From NCBI GenBank assembly GCA_024626585.2, contig JANKJI020000002.1, positions 228,063,976 to 228,087,781 of the forward strand: a DNA stretch of 23,806 nucleotides, written 5' to 3'. Positions 1-15,764 of the stretch are shown here, one piece after another. The stretch's first letter is position 1. Each line of letters begins with the position of its first letter. A program made the position numbers and the translations under genes. The notes beneath the pieces were generated by a model that worked only from the letters and a program-made list of their open reading frames with translations, ran no database searches and was not told the DNA's origin. The stretch is from Ginkgo biloba (taxonomy: Eukaryota; Plantae; Ginkgophyta).

Positions 1-1
1 A

Positions 2-583
2 ATCCATTGGTTAGCTGTAAAGTGAATTATGAGATATCTTTGAGGAACATTGCAATATAGACTTGAGTTTGTTGAGAATGATGACTTCAAGTTACAAGTA
101 TACACATATTCAGATTAGGATAGTTGTGCTAACATGAGGAGATCTACATTTGGATACTCCTTTAGTATGGGATCAATTGCAGTGACCTGGAGTAGTGACA
201 AGCAGTCAACCATCGTCCTTTCCTTGATAGAAGTATAATATAAAGATGTAGTTGTAACTACATCAGAAGCCATCTAGTTGAGACAAGTTCTCGGTGATAT
301 AGGATTAGATCAAGAGGAAGCAACAAAGTTATAATGTGACAATCAAAGATTGATAAATTTGGCAAAGAATCATATGTTCCATGTGAGGACCAAACACATT
401 GAATTTTATCATCACCTCATCTAGAAGATGATATAGAATGAGGACATCAAGTTAGTGTACAAACTTACTGAAGATCAAATTGCTGACATATTCACCAAAC
501 CTCTATCTCAAGACAAATTTTAGAAGTTCGGGGATGGTATTGGTGTGAAATGTAATGATGTAAACATTAAGGGAAAGTGTTAA
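2..583 (+). pseudogene. Ty1/copia pol C-terminus (end of RT plus RNase H), degenerate
   Basis: Frame +2 reads IHWLAVK*IMRYL*GT...YTYSD*DSCANMRRSTFGYSFSMGSIAVTWSSDKQSTIVLSLIEV*Y...L*CDNQRLINLAKNHMFHVRTKHIEFYHHLI...TEDQIADIFTKPL. This matches the copia RNase H motifs (SDW, RRSTSGY, WSSKKQ, CDNQ, RTKHI, ADIFTKPL). It has several stops and no frameshift. Confidence 0.96.
569..577 (+). promoter_or_regulatory. Polypurine tract of the copia element
   Basis: AAGGGAAAG lies at the end of pol, immediately before TGTTA at 578. Confidence 0.8.
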
Positions 584-924
584 AAATATTTATATTTTAT
601 ACTGTTTACAGTGCCAAATCTATTGTAAAGGGTCACGACCTAATGTCATTATTCCTATTACTATTCAAAGGGTTAAAGTGTCATTAGGGTGAGTCGTAGT
701 TGAGTCAACCCTATGGTGACAAGTGTTGGGAGTTACAAGACATGTGTCATGTCCGTATCTGATAATTACAAATTTATATTTGTATAAATGTACCTTGAGG
801 CTATGTACAAAGTTAATGTAGAGTTTGTGGTTTGAAGGTAGACCAATTCTACCAAATATTTGGTATTTTGTGTTCTTATGGAATGTTAAAGTTATTTTGG
901 CATTCTAAATTTATATGTATAACA
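578..924 (+). mobile_element. Copia 3' LTR (~347 bp)
   Basis: Starts TGTTA right after the PPT and ends TAACA at 924, giving a 5-bp terminal inverted repeat. There is an internal TATAAA at ~783, and sequence character changes after 924. Confidence 0.72.
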
Positions 925-2338
925 CTACACCAAGAACAATAAGAGTATTGACATACACAAAATGGAAGCATTGGAAATGATGATATTGATAAAGTTATAA
1001 GGATATCATATAACATCCAATTAAAGAAATTATAAAATTTAAATTTGATGACCTAATAAAGTCTTAATAATAGATATAAAACTAGTATGTGCATTTGAGC
1101 AAGAATGAAAATAAAGAGAAATTGATAAGGTATTTTCTACCTTTTAATATATGGAAGGATAATTGCATATATGGGGTTCTAAATGGATGTTTGTGTATCA
1201 AAATGACTAAATATTTTAATAGTTTTTAGATGACCTATGCAAGAGAGTGGATACAAATTAAGTATGTGGATATAAAATTCAACTTAACTAATTCTTTATT
1301 AGTTGCAAAGTATACTAAAAAATTTAAGGCCCTTTAAGAAAAGGTAAATATATTAAGGGATAATATTGTTTAGTACTACATTACCAAGTGAAGCCTAGAA
1401 TTGAAAGTATAATTATAAAGGCACGGCACATAGATATTAGAGAGCATATTTTACTTAGAAATGTAAATAGAATAAATCCATCAAGCATATAAAATACATT
1501 ATATTCATAAAGAAGATCTTAAATACCTCAAATAAATAATATCTATAAAGGATATTGCATTCCTTTAAGGGATAATATCCACAAATGCCATAGGAAATAA
1601 AAGAGGAACAACTTATGAATGAACAATTCTATAATGTTAAATATATTCTTATTAAGTAAGTGAAAGAAATTAGAGAAAGAGTTCTTCATAATAGAGGTTC
1701 TGAGGAAGGACCTAGAAATTAAGGACATAAAGAAAGAATAAATAGATGATAACAATAACAATGCCAATTAAGTTATTATAAAAGGAATAATATTAAAAAT
1801 AGTTAGAGTGAATATTTCATTATAATTAATGGAATGTCTTCTAAGGATGCATATCAAAGTCCAAGTCACTTATGATGGTGGATGCATAAGGTATGCACAA
1901 TTTTCTAGATATAAGGGAAGCCAAAAGATCAGGTATAAATCTCAATAGAATTTAAATAGATTCCCTATTTTAATCCTAAGGAATAAGCAAATAACATTTG
2001 AAATAAAAAACATGCATGTATAAATAATTAATTATACATTAAGAGATTTATTTTCCATTATTCCAATTAGAGGTGCAAATAGAATACTAGGAATATAGTG
2101 GTTGCAAGCCTTGGAAACTTCTGAGACAAATCATAATAAAGATTTTATTTCATTTAATAACTAAGGAGTAAAGTTAGAAATATAAGGCACAAAATATAGA
2201 ACCAACAAAATATCCATCCCTCAATATATGGGAAAAACTATGCAAAGGTGATACTTGGGTTTTATCATAAGACTAGTTAGCATGAAATCATAAGTAGATC
2301 TAGCAACTAACAATTTCAAATGGAAAAGAACGAACATG
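925..2338 (+). pseudogene. Highly decayed Ty3/gypsy gag-aspartic protease remnant
   Basis: Gag-like VAKYTKKFKAL*EKV (~1302) and LKV*L*RHGT*ILESIFYLEM*IE (~1401). Protease active-site region LMMVDA*GMHNFLDIREAKRSGI (1869-1940) resembles LVDSGATHNF. Protease C-terminal part DLFSIIPIRGANRILGI*WLQALE...FISFNN*GVKLEI*G (2045-2190) resembles DVVLGIQWL. Confidence 0.78.
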
Positions 2339-2438
2339 NNNNNNNNNNNNNNNNNNNNNNNNNNNNNNNNNNNNNNNNNNNNNNNNNNNNNNNNNNNNNN
2401 NNNNNNNNNNNNNNNNNNNNNNNNNNNNNNNNNNNNNN
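2339..2438. other. Assembly gap (100 N)
   Basis: Run of 100 N. Confidence 1.
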
Positions 2439-2535
2439 TTTTAGAGGAATTTGGCCTATTGGCGAATCTAATTTTTGAAAATTTTAGAAAAAATAGCCAA
2501 TTGGCTATATATAGCCACTAAGATTTTACCTGCTG
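2439..2535. repeat. Cluster of TGGC(G/T)A/TAGCCA motifs with overlapping palindromes; possible DNA-transposon subterminal region
   Basis: ATAGCCAATTGGCTAT (2493-2508) and TGGCTATATATAGCCA (2502-2517) are perfect 16-bp palindromes. Related TTGGCC and TTGGCGA motifs lie upstream. The block ends ...TTTTACCTGCTG (CAG-type end on minus). The hAT-like assignment is inference only. Confidence 0.35.
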
Positions 2536-3484
2536 TGAAGGCTTTTTATAACTACCCCATTAGTGGGAGATTAAGAAAGAATATCAATGTAGTTTCATGT
2601 ATTATTCTCCCTTTTAGATGTTTCTGATTATGTTGTGGCATTTGTAAGGGGAACGTTCCTTCTATGCAAAGTAAACCATTAAGTAAAGTTCATTTATGTA
2701 TGCCTTTAGTTATGTTATGGTATGTGTAGTTGAATGTATGACTTAAATGGCTCTTATGGATTCATCTAGCCTTTCTATTGAGTTCTAAAAAGGTTTGTGC
2801 TATAAGAGTCTCTACTCTAAGATTGGCCTGACACTATTGACCAATGTAGGTATGGTGGGAGGCCCAAATACTTCCTTCTCACTCTCCCTAGTTTTATGGG
2901 TGAATTTACTTCAGCCTTCCCTTACTAAAAGTTCTATTTCACTACTCACTTTCACCGCTGATATATATGGGCCTAGCCCTACTGACTTGGTATATTTTTG
3001 TATTATTCTTCCCCTTCCCTACTATTTCTTCTAGACATCTCCCTTACCTCCTCCTCCTATGCTCCAACCACTGTTCAGTGGCATTGAACCAAACCTCAAC
3101 CTCCCCATTTATAATATAGTCCTATGAATATTAGTTCGTGGCTTTTTGCTTTTGCTTTTATCATTTTTATACGAAATGAAACTGCACCTATTAAAGAAGA
3201 GGTCTTTTGACCCCTCACTGTTGACCCCAATTTGTCACTATTTTCCCTCTCTTTGAGTTGAGTAGACTAGCCATCGCCTTATCCAACTCTAGGTGTCACT
3301 TTGGACTATCAACATGAATGGTGTTGTCATCGAGTTGACTATTATTGTTGAAATGTCTCATTACTTTGAATCGAGTCACATAGAGGCTATCTCATTGAAT
3401 GGTTATTCTGAATGATGTGTCCTTAGAAAAACCTCTACATGGACCAATCAACAGTTAAGAAGCTACAATAAAAGTTGGCTAGAT

Positions 3485-3584: not shown

Positions 3585-3951
3585 GTCAATCTAAATTAAA
3601 GCCTAATCAAATTAATCTAAAATTAAATCAAAATAAAAACAAAAGAAAATCAAGGGAGATAAGGCGACGGCTCTTGGGGAGGTAAAGCGATTCATCTCAG
3701 CTGAAATGATTCAAATGGGAGGAACCAAATTGGTCCAGGGAGAAGAGAACATACAAAATCAACCCATCTATCTATCACAGAATCATGCATCTATCCCTAT
3801 TTGTTGCTGGATCTGGCATCGAATCTAACCATGCAACCGACATCCCTAACCTGAGAAAATTTGTCTAAGCTCAATCTGAGGTGTTCCTATTTTTTTTTTG
3901 GTTTTCTTTGGTTCTTACTTAGAATTCATAGGAAAAACAAAATGGTGCACA
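3585..3951 (+). mobile_element. 3' part (R/U5) of a 5' LTR of a Tat-type gypsy element
   Basis: Ends ...GGTGCACA (CA at 3950-3951), followed by TT and a tRNA primer-binding site. The left end is lost in the gap. Confidence 0.65.
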
Positions 3952-3953
3952 TT

Positions 3954-3971
3954 TGGCACTCCCGGTGTGAC
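3954..3971 (+). promoter_or_regulatory. Primer-binding site, tRNA-Arg type
   Basis: TGGCACTCCCGGTGTGAC lies 2 nt after an LTR-like CA end and is close to the TGGCACGCCC(A/G)GTGGGAC Arg-type PBS used by Tat-clade elements. Confidence 0.68.
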
Positions 3972-4768
3972 CAAACAAATGTCTTATTCTCACTCCTACT
4001 TTTCTTTTGTCATATTATTCTCCATGATGAGCATTCTCCATTTCCCATAGGTGATATCGTAAACTAATTCAATGCCTGCCAACACCCATGGCCGCTAAGT
4101 ATACTTTAAAAATTACACTATCTAGTGCAAGCGATTTTAACCCTGTTACAAATCGGTGACTTTATGAACCAGTGTTTTTATGCCTTGAGCGAATCTAACT
4201 TAAACCGATGACATTGGTATTGCTAACTTCATGGATTTTGATTCATCCACCCGAGTACCTACTTGTCGCATCTATACACAATTTTTTTTAACAGCCTTTC
4301 GGCCCTCATAGAAATCCTGTCATCCCCACTTAGCTGCGTATAACAATGTGAACTAGTTGAACTCTCCCGCGGCGTCATAAAATAAAAAAAACAAAATCCT
4401 AGTTTTCTAAAGGTTAATTTAATTAAAATATGAAAGGGGCTTATATTCAATTCATTTTGGTCATATGCTATTCATGAGATCATAGTCTAATTTCCCCAGG
4501 AGCTTAACTTTATTTCCTTTATTTTTGTCATCTTTTATTCATACCGTTGTCCACACTTCCATGTAAGTTTACACGTGGTTTAGTTCTTTATTATAATTTT
4601 GTCCTAATAAGTTGCTAGCTTATAGGAAAATTTTATTATGATGAAGACTCAAGTTTTAAGAAACTACTAACTATTATTGAAGTGAGGTGCGCAAAAATTG
4701 TACTAATACCCAGGCCTCAGACAACACCCATGCATCACGGACTTGGGCCTCACGTACCGAAAGGTATA

Positions 4769-4868: not shown

Positions 4869-5682
4869 CAAAATAAATAAAATAATAAAGTTGTATCCAT
4901 GAATATACTTATCTCCATAGGAAAATTGAATCTTCCCTAATCATACACTAGAAGTGCTCGACACATGATTTTGAAGCCAAGATTCAATGAGTATTATCCA
5001 GTGATATTGTTTTGTAATAGAATACTAGCATCTCTTGATAACCAAGTATACATATTTACCTCATTAAATGTACTAATATGATGATGAAATATCATTTCTC
5101 AATTCATCAATACATATATCATTTGATTCATGAGATATTCAAGAAGGGGAAAAAAATAATCACTTTAATTGAAATAAGATCTAAGATTACACGTATAAAA
5201 GAATCAAAATTTATAAAAATACGGGTGTAACCATTTTGATTATAATAATAAATATTTGAAGAAATAAAAATTTTATACTTGACCCAAAAGGTGTACACAA
5301 ATAATATGTAAAACATCTTCTTGATCAATAATCTATGAGAACGTAGGACATTCATGTTACTCTACAAAATACATAATAATAGGGAAGATAAAATAATGGG
5401 AAAGTATTAGGAAATATCCTCATTGATATTTTTGGTGGAACCCTTTTTCTTCCTTCATCCTTCCTTTTATCATTTTTTATTTAGAATCTTGAATCCGTTG
5501 CATGAAAATGAAAGACTAACTTCCTTTGGTTTTTCTTTCAACTTTCTGTTCATTATTGATCTATAGTTCTTGAAGACATTATAGTTTGGTTTGAATATCT
5601 ATCCTTCTAGCAGTAGTTAAATACTTATTATGAATAAAAACATTCATAATTCTTTTCTTCATTTTTATAAGTTCTTCATTTT

Positions 5683-5851
5683 TTAAATTTTTTTTTAAAG
5701 TATGATGGTTCAAGATAGGCCTACCTCTATAAACCCTATCCATGGGCAAGCGACCCCTCACTATCCATGGATGGTAAATCAAGGGGAATAGAACCTCGGT
5801 CTAGTGGGTATTAATCTAAAGTTGTAGCCGTTGTGCCAAACCCATGGGAGA
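5683..5851 (-). mobile_element. tRNA-derived SINE (copy 1, ~170 bp)
   Basis: On the minus strand: A box TGGCACAACGG, B box GGTTCTATTCC and an A-rich tail. Flanked by an identical 17-bp TSD TATAAGTTCTTCATTTT at 5666-5682 and 5852-5868. Confidence 0.9.
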
Positions 5852-8053
5852 TATAAGTTCTTCATTTTAACTTCTTATAAGATAATTTATTTCTTGATTA
5901 TGATGTCATTTATTACATAAGGAAGAAGTCATTTGACTAAAATCTATTACTTCCTATTTCTATAAGTATTGAGGACCTTCACTTTATCTAATTGAACTAA
6001 TTGCATATAATCTTCCTTTGGGATTATTTTATTGTCCTTCCATGAAGAAGGCATTTGTTCTTCCAGAACCAGCTTCATAAAAAAAGACCAAGCTTCAAGA
6101 ATTTTATTATTTACATTAAAAATTAGTTGGATCCCTCTCCAGTGAAATCTCTATTGATAATAAAAGAGGTTTCATACTCATGAATATCTTCTAGTTTGAG
6201 GTATGGGTATCCAACACATTTTCCCATATAATTATGGAATTCATTCAATTATTTATCCATAAAAGATTCCAATTCACTTAAGAATTAATAATACATCTCA
6301 AGGTAGAATTAAATATTATATAATAAAATTTATATTTTATGTACAAGCTCCCATACTTGGAGACCTAATTGTATTATTTCTTCCATTGCTTTCTACGTGA
6401 AGTCTAAGAAATCTTGTTTGCAAGTGTTTTTGGAGTAGAGTTGCTTATGCAACTAAGTTTCTTCTAAAATCAACATATAAGAAGATGATTTCAAGGATTT
6501 TAAGGCTAGTGGGGGGAGTGAATACTAACTCAAATGATGCTAATTTATTTTCAAGAGATAACTTTTAGTTGCTTAGCTAATAATTCTCCTAATAAATTTC
6601 ATCCAGTTTCACCTTAAGAGATTCAAAATAAAAATCATGAAATTGAACTGTATCTTAAGATGACATTTGACCTATGTCTAACTCAATATTTTAAACTAAT
6701 AAATCAATAATAGTCATACTGACTTTAGGTCTTAGGGTCCTTTATTTTTCCAATTGGACTTTGATCACCTTCTTGGTTGAAAAAAACTCAAAAGATGTAT
6801 GTTACTTACTAAAATTCAATGATGAAGAAGTACCTTATTTAACAAGAGATTTTTTTTTATTCAAAAACTCTATAATCTAAGGGTTTAGTACAGGATCTTC
6901 TTGAGGATTCCCTTCAAACATTTCTTTTGAATTTTTCTTAGCCATTAGAGAGGTTTGAATATTTTAGAAAGAACTAAGGTTAGGTGACTCTCTAAAAGGG
7001 GTTGACCTCATTTCTTAGCATGAATCCTTAGAATTATGATTCCTAGAGGCCCTTGAATTCCTAACAACATGACCTTCCTCCTCATGCTCAAATTTATATT
7101 TTTTCCCTTTATTCATGGGACCTTCACAATCCTCTCTCCCTAACACTACACTTTGTCTAGTTACTACCTAGTGTATGAGATCTTGATCCACCTAGAACAA
7201 CTTTGGCTACTTCATTAGTTGTAGATTTATCATCTTTATTTGATGATTCAGGAGGAGACTCTTCCCCTTGTCCCTTAGTGGCATCAGTGATTGAATTTTC
7301 TACATTTAGGATTTAGTCTTCCACATACTCTTCCTCTCAAGAGATATTACTATCTTAGGTGGTACTTGAACTATAGGGACTAGGTGGTACTACCTATTTT
7401 TTTATGAACTACCCATTCATAATATGTGGGATTTGTAAAACTATCTTCTAGGTCCACCATATGAAAGAAATACATCTTCAATTGCATTAAATATTTAAAG
7501 AAAAATTCATATGGTTCATAGTATATTTACAAAACAATATCAAGGTGATATTATTTAATATCATCTACTATACTCCTACGATGCCCAATATTTATGATGG
7601 TGATTTTACCTACATGGGAAGGAAACTTATGGAAATCTGACTTTTTTTGCAAATGCATCAGTTTGAAATGAACCAACCACATTTGTTGGCCAATTTAATT
7701 CAATAAGGTATAATCATTTTTAAATTTTGGGAGTCTATGAGGCTTTCCTTGAAATACATACAGGTAGATATAGGTATAATCCTTCTAAAAACCAATCACC
7801 AATTACTTTTAGGCATATTTCATTACAAAACTCACTCTATCTATCTCAAAATGATGAAGGTAATAAAATCCTTTAGAGGCAAATTTATTATTCAAGATGC
7901 AATGATATATCTTATGATTTTCCTTCTAGACCTTAGGGTACCAATGAGTAATTGGTAACCTTATTTCCTCCTTATTATACATATTGATGCTTAGTCCAAG
8001 GAATATTTGGGAAAAAAGAATAGCATACACCAAGTAAGAACTCCTATAAAAAT

Positions 8054-8250
8054 CCTCTGAGGGCGTGGTGCAATGATCGTAACTTTGGATTGATATCCAT
8101 AAGAATTTGGTTCCATTCCCCTCATATTCACCCCCTTATAGAATACGAGGAAACATCATAGGGCATGGGGATGAGGGGTAGGCCCAACTCGAAACCTTAT
8201 CTATGGCAAGAAAATTGTCTATGCCTGTTGGTACCCCATGCCTAAAAAAA
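8054..8250 (+). mobile_element. tRNA-derived SINE (copy 2, ~197 bp), related to copy 1
   Basis: A box TGGTGCAATGA, B box GGTTCCATTCC and an A7 tail. TSD TAAGAACTC(CT/AC)ATAAAAAT at 8035-8053 and 8251-8269 (17/19 identical). Removing the SINE restores FYVSSYLVY in ORF copy A. Confidence 0.88.
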
Positions 8251-9477
8251 TAAGAACTCACATAAAAATGGTGTGAATAGGGAAATTCAAGTAGTTGTTG
8301 AAAAATATTTTCACTAATAATATTGGCCTATTCGTAAGCAATTCCACCCTTTGCAACATTGAATATAATTTTCAAAAAATAATAATAAATTTTTTTCTCT
8401 CTCTCCAAAAACCTTAGTAATTAAATCCACAAGGATTTAAAATTTATTTTAGTTTTTACTCGTGTTGTATACTCACTACCAAATAGGTATTTGCACCTCA
8501 ATTTCAATTTAGTCATTTACCATTTTAGGTAATTTCCATGCTTTTTGATAAAAATATTATTCATTTTTAAAATAAAATGACTCCATATGAGGAGGAAGGT
8601 GAAGCATTATGGATAAAATATCAGGGGTTAAGTCACAGAGTACCGAATTCATTTTTGAAGTCATAGTTTATAACTACATATTGAATCTTGAAGCATACCA
8701 TTCTACCAATAAGCGTGAATGCATGAATTGAAGCATGACAATAGATTGAATTAAACCAAATTTCCATAGTGTCTTCTCTTCCCTCTTTTCTCCCTCCATT
8801 TGAATATGTTTCATAAATAGAGAACTAGAACTAGACTGACATGTATTAATTGTATCCATAATTTCCACCATTGATGAAGTTGCTAACACTTATGATCCTT
8901 TCGTAGGTTTCATCCCTATTGAATATTTTCTCAATTTTCTTATGAAATATTCAATTTATATTTAATAACCTTATTGATTAATGAAGATACAATCTTTGAT
9001 AGACACCTATATACCATGTTTATGGTCAAGATTTGGTGATTTCTTCAGTATTAAATGTACTCAACCTTGGTTTGATTTATGGTATGCAGTGTGATCACCT
9101 TAAATGATCCTTATTTTAAAATGAGTTATAGATGGGAAAGTAAGATAAAAGATCCTCAAAGTGACAATTTTCCATTAATGAGAGGCACCCAAATCCATTA
9201 TAGAAAAAAACATCATGTCTTGCCCAATTAATCCTTCTCATGAATCCTTCCACCTCCAAGAACCCAAAACCTAATGATTTCCTTTAGATACACTAGATGT
9301 GAACTTTGACTTAATCTTCCCTCATTCTTATTTTAAGTATGCAAATCCATGAAAAACTTCATAATTTTCTTAAATTTCTTGTAACCCCAAAATTTAAACC
9401 CTAAAACTATTGTGAACAATTTTATAGATATGATGTCCTAGTTAAATAGATTTAATTCTTTAGCTCAGGTCCATAAA

Positions 9478-9960
9478 CTATCTTTGAGATTTTGGGGATT
9501 TTGAAAGGTGACCATCCATTCCTTGGATATCCCAAATTTTAAAACTCAAAATCTCCCTATAGGGCATTAATGGGTGTAAGTCTTCATGTGAATGAACCTT
9601 CCATTCGAGTTTAGGGATTATCATAGTGTAATCGAATATTCTTGACCAAGAGAAACCTAATGAAGTTAGTTGCCAAAATTTATGCAATTTCTCTAACCAT
9701 TTCAACCTAAAAATATAGATCATAAGATTATCGTAACTTAAAAAACTATGTAGATACATATTACCAAAACTCATTATGCATTTGATGACATAGAATCAAT
9801 TGATCATCTAAGAATTAGAACTTGAGTCTTTCCAATACATTGGCATCCCTTCTTTACTTTGATCAAAATAATATTTTGATTTTAACTTTGAGTATTTTCT
9901 CTCTAAAATTTCATTCATTCATATTATAAACTATACCCATGGAAAAGAGGTCCCATTCAT
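9478..9960 (-). pseudogene. Second uncharacterised degenerate reading frame upstream of, and in frame with, the start of ORF copy A
   Basis: MNGTSFPWV*FII*MNEILERKYSKLKSKYYF...PMYWKDS...SFGNMYLHSFLSYDNLMIYIFRLKWLEKLHKFWQLTSLGFSWSRIF...PKLEW. About 4 internal stops in ~160 codons is few for this AT content. It includes track ORF 9478-9774. Confidence 0.5.
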
Positions 9961-10104
9961 GCCTCAATAATGTCTAACTATTCTAGTTTGCACAGATTCC
10001 TCAATTTTTAATAATGATAATTCTATATTTTCTAGAGTATATAAAGTTATCCATAGTTATGGGTATCTATATTAATGTGTTACCTTAAGTTATGTGCCAA
10101 TGTA

Positions 10105-10336
10105 TGTTGGAAAATGTGTCAGTTGTAAGCCAAAGTGTCAATATAAATATTGATTATTATTCCATGTATGTGTAATAGTTAGATACGAGAGTCTTTAAGT
10201 GATGTAATTGTGCATGTGCAAATATGGATTAAGTCTGTCTTCAAAGTGGTTTTTACCTTATGGGTTTTCTACTATAAATTGTGTGTTTCAAGCTTATGTG
10301 ATTGCATTATGGTATCAAAGTATAATGATTTTAACA
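10105..10336 (+). mobile_element. Short copia-like LTR fragment or solo LTR
   Basis: TGTTGG...TTTTAACA ends, TATAAATA at ~10142, and GTGGTTTTTACCTTATGGGTTTTCTAC resembling a common copia U5 motif. No convincing TSD. Confidence 0.4.
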
Positions 10337-11214
10337 AGATGTCTAATAAGTAAAGAGTAAATGTATATCATAAATACATGTATAATATGTTATGAATTGT
10401 ATAAAGTCATTAGGATAATCTAAATGGCCTATGAAATTTATCTTCTTCCTCCACTAAGGCTCTAATTTTTAATATTCTTGTGTTCTAGTATTGATGTTAA
10501 AGTTATCTTAATATGAAGTATTCATACTAATCTGTTGCATGATCTAAATACCAAATATATTTCCTTATATTATTTTTTGGGTTTTATCATAAGTGTGAAG
10601 CTCCTACTAGTGAGAAATGTGAACCAATTAGAACCCACCTTTGGAATATGATCATTTTTCCTAAAATTATTAGAAGCATTATTGTTGTTTATAATGGGAA
10701 TACCGTCAATCAAGTTGAAATTAATTTGAGAGGCTATGTTTTTTCATATTAATACCATCAATGTGAACACGTTTGCAAATTAGAAATATATGTAATAATG
10801 GAAAATAACTATTTCAATTGGTTCTTGCCATTCTTAGCTTAAGATGATTGGTCATTACTTGGCAGATTTCTCTATTTCATGCAATCTAGGGAAGCATTGA
10901 AGGCCTAGTATTGGTGCTACTCATTCATCCATATTTATTCCTTTACTTATTCATTTTATTGGAGAATGCACATGATTTTATATGTGTTTTGGTTACCATT
11001 CCTTTTACAAAATAAGATGCAACATGCTGCATAAAATACCTAGTTAAGGAAACTTTAGAATAAAGTTGTGATAAAGTAATGGCTACTAAATTTTGTTATT
11101 CTCTATAATGGAAAACAAACATATAAGGAGTAAGTTCACTAATAGATTTGATTTTATCGATATATTTGTGTTTGTAATTGATTATTCTTCTATGAAGGGT
11201 GCTTTAATTATTTC

Positions 11215-11314
11215 NNNNNNNNNNNNNNNNNNNNNNNNNNNNNNNNNNNNNNNNNNNNNNNNNNNNNNNNNNNNNNNNNNNNNNNNNNNNNNNNNNNNNN
11301 NNNNNNNNNNNNNN
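11215..11314. other. Assembly gap (100 N)
   Basis: Run of 100 N. Confidence 1.
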
Positions 11315-11315
11315 T

Positions 11316-14127
11316 GCTCGTAGAAGGACAATTCATGTAGTAGATGGCCAAGTTTTATGTGATCTGACTCCCAATTATTTCCAGAAGATGTTTGAGATAC
11401 CTAACATATAAGAGGTTTTCTCTTTTGACATAGCAAAACAATTTTACCAACATCATCATCAAGTTACGAGGTTGATTAATTCTTAGCACAATGATCTAGT
11501 GATAAACCTTGCTACTAAGCCTGTGTATGAGACCAATAAGTTAGAGGAGGAGTATAAGAACATTGTGGCCCTATTAAATAGGGTTTTTGAAGAAATATAC
11601 ACCATAAAGATGTATCATTCTATGGTTTACCTAGTATATCAAGTAAGTAAGGTGGGTAAAAGATTTAATTGGTCTAAAATTATCAGTGATACCATGGTAA
11701 GATAGTTTTTTGAGTTTCCCAAAATAGGTAAATTATATATGGTTTCATATATTATTTACTCCATACTCTTTTCTAGAGTATTTTTGGGATTTCTATATAA
11801 TCGCATACATAAGGAAGAGAGAGGATTACCAGTGTAATTTTGGTATCCTAAAGTGTGGAAAGATAAATATAAGCCTTACTATTTCTTTATTAATGATAAA
11901 TTTATATATCAAGTATATATCCTTCTACATGATAAACAACTTCCCAAAACTTACAACCATGTGAAAGAGGATTTGATTAGAATTAGTGATTGGTACTTTG
12001 AGAAGACTTATTCTTATAGTGTGCTTTATGACTTTGATGGTGCTCCCTATCATTTGCTAAAGTATATTGATGATCACATGAAAATTTATAAAATTTATTG
12101 GAAAATAATAGTTATTCATACCAAAGTTTCTCAGAGATGGAAAAAGGCATCCTTTCATTCATTCCCCTTTAGAATTGGAGATTTTATAGTAACCAATATT
12201 ATCCAGGCTAAGGCTCATACCAAAGAAATCTTGAGTTACATTTTGAAAGAAGATAGTTAGAGACAATATGATCTCGATGGGGTCTTTACAAACAATTACC
12301 AACTTCAATCCTATTATGTGTTTGATCTAGGAGATAAATATCGTAATCTGATTGATTATAATTGGGTGGCACACAAGTGCAAAAGTAGAAAAACACCTCC
12401 AAGCAGCCCTAAAAATTTGTGACTTTCTAAATAAAATGAATAAGATCAACAATGGGATGATATTGGGTTACCTTTGAGAAGTGAAGGGAATTGTGATCAT
12501 GGCAAAGAATAAGGTGAAGCCAAGCAAACACCTATTATTAATAAAGGAATAGGATAATCTTCAAGACCTTGTAGAGAAAAATAAACCCAAGAACAAATAT
12601 CTATAATAAATCAACATGGTATCTCTAAAGGAGGAGGGGATAATGGTTATGATGACCCTAAAAAGGGTAGGAAACATAAGCAAGCTCATGAAGAGGAAGG
12701 AACAACCCCCAAAGGTAAAAGATCTCTCTGATGCCAAAGTTTATTCAATACTAGTGATTCATTAGGTAAAGAAAAATAAGATGTTGGTTTGCCTTCTCCC
12801 AACACTTTGGTAGAAATCACGTCATCAAATACGAAAAAAGGTATGATCAGTACAGAGTCAATAGAGGAAGAAATCCCTTAAGGACAATTAGTCTTGAATC
12901 CTTGGTTAGTGGAATTGATGAATTATCATTAAATCTCTAGCGAGGAGAGTGATTTTACCATGATGGACTTCAACAAGTAGCACACATCCTTTACTTTGGA
13001 TTCTAAGAATAAAGCCATCAAGATAAGGTCTGCAAGGATGAAAGCTTCCAAAGATAAGACATAGGTGACTTATTTCTGATGTGTTGCTACAAGAGATAGA
13101 AATTGATATGAAGCAATTGACAACTCAAGAAGCTATGAGTTTTCATAAAGACTCATTTAAAGCTTTACAATTTAAAGTTAATGAATTAACTTCGGATAAT
13201 GCTCAGTTGAGAGAGCATAATCAAGCCTTAAGAGTAAGAATAAATGAATATGATTCTACTTTTTCTCCTCCTATCCTGGTGTAGCCTATTCAAGTGATTG
13301 GGCCTTCAAATGACACTAAATTATAATGGAAAATTCACAATGCTAGCATATGTCAAAATTCCTTTGTATAATATATGAAAGGTATGGTGAAGGATATGGT
13401 TAAGGAAGGGTCACAATTATGGATAATGGCCGATAAAATTAAGGAACTTATCATCAATACCTCGACATGCCAAGACGCTTATCCTAAGTTGATCAAAGAA
13501 TTGAAAGAATTCTTAGAAAATGAACTAGTCGAATATAGTAAATTCGTCAGCCTAGGAAGTAGAGATACATACCCCAGAATGAAAGACCTAGGTTATATTA
13601 GAGATTCCATCATTCTGGAAAAAGAATTCAGTAGGGAGGCATGTGAAAGGTTTGTAAGCATGAGGGGCAGTATTTTTGGGAAGAAGACCACCTTGGAGAT
13701 GGTGGCATTAGAAAACTTTATTCCATCCCCTTGGATGGAAGGTTGATTGGCCTTTAAGGGCGATAATTTAGGTGTACATCAATCCAAGGAGACTACGTTT
13801 GTACATTAATTATAGGAGGGGGAGATTATTGATCCTAACCTGTTAAACCAGATGCTAAAGGATAAGAGTAAGTAAAATCAAGAGATAGAGTTTATTTTAA
13901 GGCATGAAATTAAAGATGTGGGTTCAGGGATCTCTATTAGAAGAATAAATATTTTAAGAAAGAGAGTTTAGCGATCTCTATTGGAAGAATAAATATTTTA
14001 TAACAATAAAACCATGGTATATATAATAAAAATTATGGTCCTTGAATGAGTTAGAGGAAAATAAGGCACATATGGTCAACACAAGAACCCAGAGAAGTTA
14101 ATCACTAAACTTTGCCATAATCCTTAA
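11316..14127 (+). pseudogene. Copy B of the long uncharacterised accessory ORF (5' end lost in gap)
   Basis: One frame from 11316 to ~12580 includes track ORFs 11499 and 11853: QVLCDLTPNYFQKMFEIP...IVALLNRVF...FNWSKIISDTMVR*FFEFP...LYMVSYIIYSILFSRVFLG...GLPV*FWYPKVWK...ISDWYFEK...DLGDKYRNLIDYNWVAHK. A K/E/S/G-rich linker follows, then a helical C-terminus (track ORFs 13081 and 13375). Homologous to copy A in the N- and C-terminal blocks. Confidence 0.88.
13929..14000 (+). repeat. Short direct repeat, 28 bp x2, 44-bp period
   Basis: GATCTCTATT(A/G)GAAGAATAAATATTTTA at 13929-13956 and 13973-14000. Confidence 0.9.
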
Positions 14128-14425
14128 TTGTTTCAATTGTCCCAACGAACAAGGTCGCCAGCAAGTTTTATAAAAAGAGAGGATGAAAAGAGATTGGGGA
14201 GGAACCATTATTTACACTAGATGAGAAAATCCCTGACTTCTATCTCCCATTCTTTTCTTTTTCTTTCGGTAGGTTTGTAATACCAGTGTTATGATATTGT
14301 CTATGTTTGGAGCTTATGTACACCTGATTGGGTTCATCTTATCATTTTTATAGAACATTATAGGATCAATTGGTTCTAGATTTTAATATTTCTATGCATT
14401 ATTGAGATTCTACACTTGTAATCCA

Positions 14426-14634
14426 AATAATTTTTGAATAAAAGAAATGGTTTTCATGTTTACAACATTGATGTGATCGAGCATTATTAGAATGTTGTGT
14501 TGTGAATCATGAATAAAATTCTCTATTTCCTAATAATTTTTGAATAAAATAAATGGTGTTCATATTTATAACATTGATGTGATCAAGCGTTGCTAGCATA
14601 TTGTGTTGTGACTCATGAATAAAATTATTTATTT
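14426..14634 (+). repeat. Tandem duplication, 106-bp unit x2
   Basis: Units start AATAATTTTTGAATAAAA at 14426 and 14532, with about 13 mismatches over ~103 bp by eye. Confidence 0.93.
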
Positions 14635-15299
14635 AAAAATTGAGTGCTAATAGTATTTACCAGTAGATATTTTTGTGATATATTTAGGTTTTTATTCAAT
14701 GTTCATGTCTAGCATTGTTGGCATATTTTTGAGAACTTCCCTTAGATTATGAGATTAATTTTAACTAGTCATGTTTTATGATTCTAGTTTCTATATCTTG
14801 AGGTATTGATTTAAATGGTTCAAAGTTATGCCTTATCATTCCATGTTCAAAGGATTTTACTTTGAGAATTGCTGGAGGATTTTCTTTAAACATGATAAAT
14901 TTTAATATTTAGTTTTGATTTTGAGTTCTTTCGAGCATTGCTAAAAGAAGTCCAATTCAACTAGCCAAGAAGCTTGTATAATCAGAGGATCAGGAACTTC
15001 TAGTTCTTAAAATAATTAAGCCTTCTTCAAACCTACTTAAGAAGACCTGAGGGACCTCCTTTATAGCATTGAGAGGTATCCCTAGGAGGGTGCTCAATAT
15101 TTTTATTCTTTTCCTCCTTTTCCTCACCAAGCTTACACTTTTCTCCATTGCCTTTTTAGGCTATGGATTAGTTTGATATTCCTTTTCTATCTTTGTTGTT
15201 TGAATTATGTTCAATACATTACAACTTCCTTGCATATTGTGAATATATTGATTTGCGATTTTATTTTCATTCTTTGTGTTTAAACTAGTTCATTTTCCA

Positions 15300-15400
15300 C
15301 TATAAATACTTGAGGGAACTTCCCATTATAAATGTGAAGGGATTCTGACTCTCGTTTCTATCCTAATTTTGTATGATCCTTTCCTTGGGCTTGATAGTCA
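15300..15400 (-). pseudogene. C-terminal tip of a Tat/Athila-type integrase
   Basis: Minus strand reads KGSYKIRIETRVRIPSHL / NGKF / LKYL* with frameshifts, resembling the G(A/S)YxL...NGxFLKxY* end of non-chromovirus gypsy pol. Confidence 0.55.
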
Positions 15401-15444
15401 ATTATTGAATTATCCAAGATACAAAAAATATAGGCAACAAGTAT

Positions 15445-15764
15445 TTATTGGATCAAGATTCTTTAAAGCCTCTCACCTTAAAGAATTAGAGGAGATCAAT
15501 GGAAAAGATTCTCCTTTCATATTATCATTTGGAGGTCTATTATGATCATAGCTATATGTCTTATGAAAATAATATTAGGCAGAGATCCTTCCTCATGGGA
15601 GATAGTTCCCTTAAGCTTGACTCCCTCTTTTATAGAAAAGGAAAGTTTGTACCCAAATGTATTATTCCCTTCATTGTTCTAAAGGATCTAAAAATGGAGC
15701 CTATCATATTTCTACTCTGGATTGACATGATTTTCAACAATTTTTTAATCTATACTACCCATAG
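15445..15764 (+). pseudogene. C-terminal part of an Ogre/Tat-type integrase
   Basis: ASHLKELEEIN / KILLSYYHLEVYYDHSYMSYENNIRQRSFLMGDSSLK...RKGKFVPKCIIPFIVLKD / NGAYHISTLD*HD...LYYP* matches LxxLDExR..HL..YQ...VRxRxFxxGDLVL...KGKFxPxWxGPY...GAYxL...YY*. It includes track ORF 15499-15771. Confidence 0.82.

Follow-up and report, generated by a model that had tools for sequence, protein, structure and literature searches.

Which protein was once encoded by two decayed and related open reading frames (ORFs) in this 23,806-nucleotide stretch of Ginkgo biloba DNA (contig JANKJI020000002.1, positions 228,063,976 to 228,087,781; hereafter the window), and what kind of element carried it? The initial annotation had described copy A, on the minus strand, and copy B, on the plus strand, as colinear versions of one retroelement protein without a recognisable domain, kept by purifying selection. 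The reading that we favor is that A and B are dead members of a single transposon-borne family of proteins, that their source is a pair of diverged element families in a Ginkgo-like genome, and that the protein likely served a long terminal repeat (LTR) retrotransposon as a nuclear, DNA-binding accessory factor with a PMD/VANC-like fold. Taken as a whole, we regard this reading as evenly balanced between right and wrong. For the narrower statement that a real and selected element protein stands behind both copies, we are nearly certain.

With three-frame translations as input for blastp, we found that the N-terminal domains (N-domains) of A and B share 31% identity over 217 aa (E 3.6e-32), and that further protein blocks match with E values of 3e-7, 7e-11 and 3e-8. 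A tblastx comparison returned ten blocks in the same order, from 8643/11352 to 5644/13973, with a sum E of 6.7e-40. Likeness at the nucleotide level is weak (best match 70% over 96 nt). The alignment of the two copies, which the initial annotation had proposed as a check, gave significant homology, and both copies are indeed present and colinear. The first nine of the block pairs listed there are visible in the printed reading frames. The last one, LLEG*IF/LLEE*IF, is probably off-frame, since the Ginkgo model Gb_02378 (P0009) ends in another frame that is common to A and B (30% identity over 87 aa at the C-terminal ends, E 0.001 by blastp). This frame places the stops at about 14099–14101 in B and 5518–5516 in A.

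Both ORFs lie where they had been placed, with corrected limits. Copy A (5516..8913, minus strand) is a decayed ORF of about 1000 codons with many stops, frame changes and two short interspersed nuclear element (SINE)-like inserts; it starts further out than first described, at an ATG at 8913 instead of 8889, and its first ~25 residues match the start of the Ginkgo model Gb_06569. Copy B (11316..14101, plus strand) stops at about 14101 and is missing its first ~60–90 residues, which fall in an N gap at 11215–11314. The proposed layout of an element-borne accessory protein with an N-domain, a charged linker and a coiled-coil C-terminus was borne out. The N-terminal globular domain, which is the family domain, spans 7377..8913 (minus) in A and 11316..12401 (plus) in B, where it occupies a single reading frame. 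In B it is followed by a charged low-complexity linker (12402..12900, plus) with a basic patch, KKGRKHK (about 12660–12680), and by a helical/coiled-coil C-terminal region (12901..14101, plus) with sub-threshold coiled-coil Pfam matches, which aligns to Ginkgo-type relatives only. Similar basic patches occur in the Ginkgo models P0004, P0013 and P0050, and judged by its sequence KKGRKHK is a putative nuclear localization signal. Near the end of ORF B, where the frame changes, there is also a 44-nt tandem duplication (13911–14005, plus).

To what extent was this protein conserved as a protein? We compared A and B over eight ungapped blocks with 379 codons. Their identity is 52% at the first codon position, 68% at the second and 40% at the third, and of the 133 identical residues 64 are encoded by different codons. 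The ratio of nonsynonymous to synonymous differences per site (pN/pS) is 0.56 (bootstrap 0.48–0.63), as compared to 0.95 and 1.46 in two shifted frames and 0.98 in the antisense frame, although the A/B value leans low because the blocks were chosen by protein similarity. A third copy, L001, gave a pN/pS of 0.30 against B over 165 codons; this value is less exposed to the same bias because the blocks are also 75–77% alike as DNA. These data show purifying selection on the protein before its decay, as the initial annotation had claimed. Copy B now contains 17 stops in 584 codons (11316–13067) and 8 in 303 (13069–13977). In three RNA runs (2–6% of the reads of each) we observed almost no RNA depth on either ORF, and a ribosomal-protein retrocopy located between A and B reached 25–98-fold depth in two runs. 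This points weakly to silence of A and B in those three libraries, and we propose that they are silenced relics.

A word-index search with the protein returned one relative, the Ginkgo biloba model Gb_06569 (E 7e-62), which is colinear with B across N-domain, linker and C-terminus; this search gave no match near query length and one longer match, and one when alignment was used. By way of a seven-row profile we found 105 relatives at E<=1e-3 and 24 at <=1e-10. Among the 20 that we looked up were 4 Ginkgo models, 1 protein from Taxus chinensis and 15 Logan, JGI or ENA records. The Taxus representative scored 4e-4 in the full search, and P0034 from the same clade 5e-10. One relative, P0022, is free of stops over 1010 aa and has the layout of copies A and B. 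Only the N-domain can be aligned across the whole family. In a tree of 21 long members (FastTree, 244 columns, midpoint root, no outgroup), A groups with B, Gb_06569 and P0008 (support 0.97) and is separate from three other groups, to which its group is about 20–23% identical, compared to 31% between A and B. We also tested a reduced profile. Alignment A4, which is A3 (92 rows) minus 14 mostly poorly aligned rows, was stripped of the five nearest rows, and the resulting profile still recovered B (11460–12401, 7e-62) and A (8057–7377, 3e-28; 8405–8247, iE 2e-4), with no third copy in the window. Scans of five viral contigs and a plasmid scan gave no match, and neither did sequence and profile searches of PDB. 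In the Ginkgo and Taxus annotations, copies of the family ORF are listed as hypothetical genes of the host (the cluster of P0004, P0009, P0013, P0025, P0050 and P0101). The three Ginkgo models that we compared lack internal blocks that B has, and these skipped blocks are probably false introns drawn across broken parts.

We then turned to the question as to what the N-domain may be. The predicted model shows a globular soluble N-domain of ~400 aa, of which the first ~250 residues are VANC21-like, and long coiled coils after the charged linker. VANC21 (PDB 9LNJ) is a modest fold match: the predicted overlap covers 207 residues at 7% identity. Alignment to P0022 locates the VANC21-like part at about 8800–7880 (minus) in A and at about 11316–11940 (plus) in B. 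Foldseek gave no match to PDB or BFVD at E<=1e-3, and a wide VIA search, which did not probe the N-domain, returned coiled coils only. The Pfam hidden Markov model (HMM) of PMD (PF10536) matched 0 of 48 (E<=0.05), 0 of 78 and 0 of 3 proteins, a test in which HMMER filters lose weak matches; DUF1985, Transposase_28, Transposase_32 (PF20167), ATHILA (PF03078) and TRP28 (PF04195) were likewise without HMM match in these 48, 78 and 3 proteins. Because the HMM test fails for each of the named families, we assign the protein to none of them. The description of the domain as unrecognisable holds as far as Pfam and PDB sequence matches are concerned. It is unsupported in its stronger form, because VANC21 is matched modestly at the level of structure and because there is a weak lead to Transposase_32. 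On the strength of the predicted model, the N-domain probably has a PMD/VANC-like fold.

The same fold and the same kind of element would also suit a different function. The protein could be the gymnosperm counterpart of the Athila ORF, Transposase_32 or env-position proteins, and help with structure or targeting (in the particle, the integration complex or nuclear import) instead of acting against silencing. We consider this somewhat unlikely. By Atlas language-model features the nearest named clusters are indeed Transposase_32 and ATHILA: within the top two named rows, 13% and 26% of the members have PF20167, and all ten best family-bearing matches belong to the PF20167 family or clan. Transposase_32 has been reported in the sense extra ORF of Athila and as related to PF03078, and coiled-coil pentamer models have been described for Athila-domain proteins. 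As in Athila, a large extra ORF is followed by a purine tract and a long non-coding region. For extra ORFs, a role in nuclear import or in regulation has been suggested in a review (PMC7264820). However, a third of shuffled proteins reach the same Atlas scores (0.78–0.80), so that the PF20167 relation is a weak lead only; of the entries looked for, P0115 is present in Atlas and P0022, P0033, P0034 and P0114 are absent. Furthermore, the HMMs of PF20167 and PF03078 matched none of the scanned proteins, we saw no linked Athila pol, and the sole match to a solved structure is a DNA-bound anti-silencing protein.

If the VANC21 match were a chance overlap of helices, the N-domain would be an unrelated new fold and the protein a categorically new element factor. 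This is rather improbable, since VANC21 was within the 492 candidates that Foldseek retained out of 350,542 chains and then took the top rank, its aligned length being about three times that of any other N-domain row, and since the VANC-type family had been named before the structure match was found.

Returning to a PMD/VANC-like accessory factor, we compared the family with the systems that it would resemble. VANC21 (DUF1985), encoded by VANDAL21 of Arabidopsis, attaches to non-coding regions with tandem repeats in the element that encodes it, and strips silent marks (PMC10398659). Both proteins are transposon-encoded and have a coiled-coil region, and both elements contain tandem repeats in non-coding DNA. 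In contrast to VANC21, whose carrier is a Mutator element, the family has an LTR-like carrier, no Pfam match, and ~150 further conserved residues outside the aligned part, and is known here from sequence and predicted fold. VANC is described as dicot-specific, with the PMD of MAIN/MAIL1 structurally similar to it (PMC13547354), whereas the family here is from gymnosperms. That similarity, by way of VANC21 only, also provides the link to PMD, which occurs in MAIN/MAIL1 and, as PMD-A, in an extra ORF of plant retroelements (Ogre/Gypsy); none of the scanned members matches its HMM. The PMD clades have been described from angiosperms (PMC5418596). TRP28 is another conserved extra ORF, antisense in Retand and Grande, for which a nuclear DNA-binding role has been proposed (PMC11963269, PMC7264820); it differs from the family by the failed HMM match and by being reported from flowering plants only. 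Further papers were used for comparison (PMC10508981, PMC13468544, PMC2633040, PMC11728184). On present evidence, the family would work like PMD-A/VANC. The order of its conserved blocks is, as we presume, PMD-like.

Because of the analogy with VANC21 we can infer how such a protein may work. Expressed from its own ORF, it would enter the nucleus by means of the basic linker patch, oligomerize through the coiled coil, and use its N-domain to bind short motifs in the LTR or the non-coding repeats of its own element; local counter-silencing would then keep the element family transcribed. The fold match to VANC21 is the first evidence for the guess that the protein is a chromatin or anti-silencing factor, and the role itself would follow by analogy. 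A DNA or chromatin role on an LTR element has, in our view, an even chance, and anti-silencing in the strict sense of VANC appears doubtful. The same tentative standing applies to the broader idea that gymnosperm LTR retrotransposons encode VANC-like anti-silencing proteins of their own, which are sequence-specific and fall into several subfamilies at 20–30% identity that date back at least to the split of Ginkgo and conifers.

What carried the ORF? Past the stop, the DNA of A and B is homologous for ~630 nt, with a score of 208 as compared to 139±11 for block shuffles (max 169 of 100) and at most 141 for 14 unrelated window stretches. This non-coding 3' region extends over 4869..5515 (minus) in A, where it is cut by an N gap, and corresponds to 14127–14770 in B. 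A purine tract follows the stop in both copies (5468–5437 in A; 14172..14203, plus, in B). Two tandem 106-nt repeats, 86% alike, lie in the region of B (14422..14634, plus); tandem repeats in non-coding DNA are a common feature and weak evidence. An LTR-like terminal region of 1.15 kb (14288..15439) begins with TGTT at 14288 and ends with ...GGCAACA at 15439, and in four DNA-type runs the repeat depth drops about 8- to 33-fold at 15425–15481, just past this end. There is a TATA-like word on the minus strand at 15066 and another on the plus strand at 15300. A core at 15045–15096 is common to very abundant repeats of many other families, with unlike flanks. This core of ~50 nt holds a minus-strand TATA-like word, has a summed contig depth of 30,000–170,000, and is worth a look as a candidate conserved promoter core or binding site.

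From these ends we judge that the carrier was probably an LTR retrotransposon. The more specific Tat/Ogre/Athila carrier is left as a proposal, as no gag/pol is linked to either copy; the 5' side of B and the 3' side of A run into N gaps, and ten scanned stretches, a part of the window, contain no gag/pol Pfam domain. Around the LTR-like region, however, we found neither a second LTR nor a target duplication; neither end has a primer binding site (PBS) that comes within 3 mismatches of any of four motifs; and beside 14288 there is no purine run that ends in TG. What the locus holds are two dead copies, and extra ORFs are so common in plant LTR elements that the kind is already known: 3372 Ty3/gypsy elements with an extra ORF have been sorted into 314 groups, with a known domain in only 21.4% of such proteins and PMD in 57% of Ogre elements (PMC6317226, PMC7264820, PMC11963269).

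A DNA transposon (Mutator/VANDAL-like or CACTA), with the protein as a true VANC-type factor, would agree with the Mutator origin of VANC21, with the tandem repeats and, given the partial scan, with the lack of linked gag/pol. It is nevertheless quite improbable: the ...CAACA end at 15439 pairs with TGTT at 14288, the core of 50 nt recurs in very abundant repeats, long terminal inverted repeats were not seen, the ten scanned stretches hold no transposase, and VANCs have been described as specific to dicots. A family of host genes, or else a membrane env protein, suggested by the host-gene annotations and by a single hydrophobic window in decayed B (maximum Kyte-Doolittle 19-residue mean 1.77), is largely refuted, since the copies seen are intronless and repetitive, three Ginkgo models lack internal blocks of B, the predicted model is globular and soluble, and a simple hydropathy window gave no transmembrane helix in B or in seven relatives (maxima 0.95–1.59).

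The LTR element reading bears on an older question. The origin of PMD, whether in Gypsy elements or in host genes, has been called "fully open" (PMC5418596), and capture of MAIN-like genes has been proposed for VANC in a 2026 atlas (PMC13547354). A Pfam-invisible, element-borne gymnosperm family with this fold bears on that origin; if gymnosperm elements do have such anti-silencing proteins, a transposon-borne PMD/VANC fold would be older than the angiosperm MAIN genes, and the proteins could help explain how giant genomes with heavy methylation were built by these elements. For VANDAL DNA transposons, proteins that act against silencing are established; for extra ORFs of retrotransposons they are, in the papers cited, only proposed. 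Our literature searches gave no account of the gymnosperm family or of a VANC-like fold in it, and the list of extra ORFs in REXdb Additional file 4 may already include it. P0022 is an intact natural member that can be used for testing.

The remaining window is AT-rich, CpG-depleted repeat DNA (CpG observed/expected 0.17–0.23) with several 100-N gaps. Of the two SINE-like inserts in A, the first (8054..8250, plus) has an A-rich tail and a 19-nt target-site duplication (8035–8053/8251–8269, 17/19 identical), and is absent from contigs of related copies (joints 7987–8251 and 8003–8255); the second (5683..5852, minus) has a 16-nt target duplication and is related to the first (76% over 42 nt). 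L001 carries a decayed Ty1/copia pol and an LTR-like stretch (1–3200, plus) ~100 nt before its family ORF, which has an internal deletion of ~130 codons. Since this pol ends in its own purine tract and LTR-like stretch before the ORF (by eye), it is an apparent nested insertion, and a SIRE-like copia reading of L001 is unlikely.

Other element remnants surround the two copies. Positions 1–600 (plus) hold the RNase H region at the 3' end of a Ty1/copia pol, which has a tblastx match to the copia pol of L001; a purine tract and then an LTR-like start come next. A decayed frame at about 1800–2338 (plus) resembles, by eye, a gypsy gag-protease junction without Pfam match. The stretch 2543–3313 (plus), which ends in ...ATCAACA, aligns weakly but colinearly with the terminal region of B at 14727–15418 (score 160, block shuffles 118±11, max 158), and may be the diverged LTR of some related family; provided that the scaffold is right, it is oriented opposite to A. 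An LTR-end-like sequence at 3585–3975 (plus) leads to a PBS-like site of the Arg type at 3954 (2 mismatches). We rejected a tie between this site and A, because 3585–4768 is unlike the terminal region of B in both orientations (z -1.9, 0.6). Between A and B, a separate element is marked by a short high-copy LTR-like stretch that begins with TGTTGG and a Met-type PBS-like site at 10310 (10104–10322, plus; 2 mismatches). Finally, the retrocopy between A and B is a processed copy of a ribosomal protein uS19/S15 mRNA (10590–10945, plus; PF00203 weakly matched, E 0.008) with ~117 nt inserted at 10725–10841, on which RNA reads of the host gene pile up with fixed differences.

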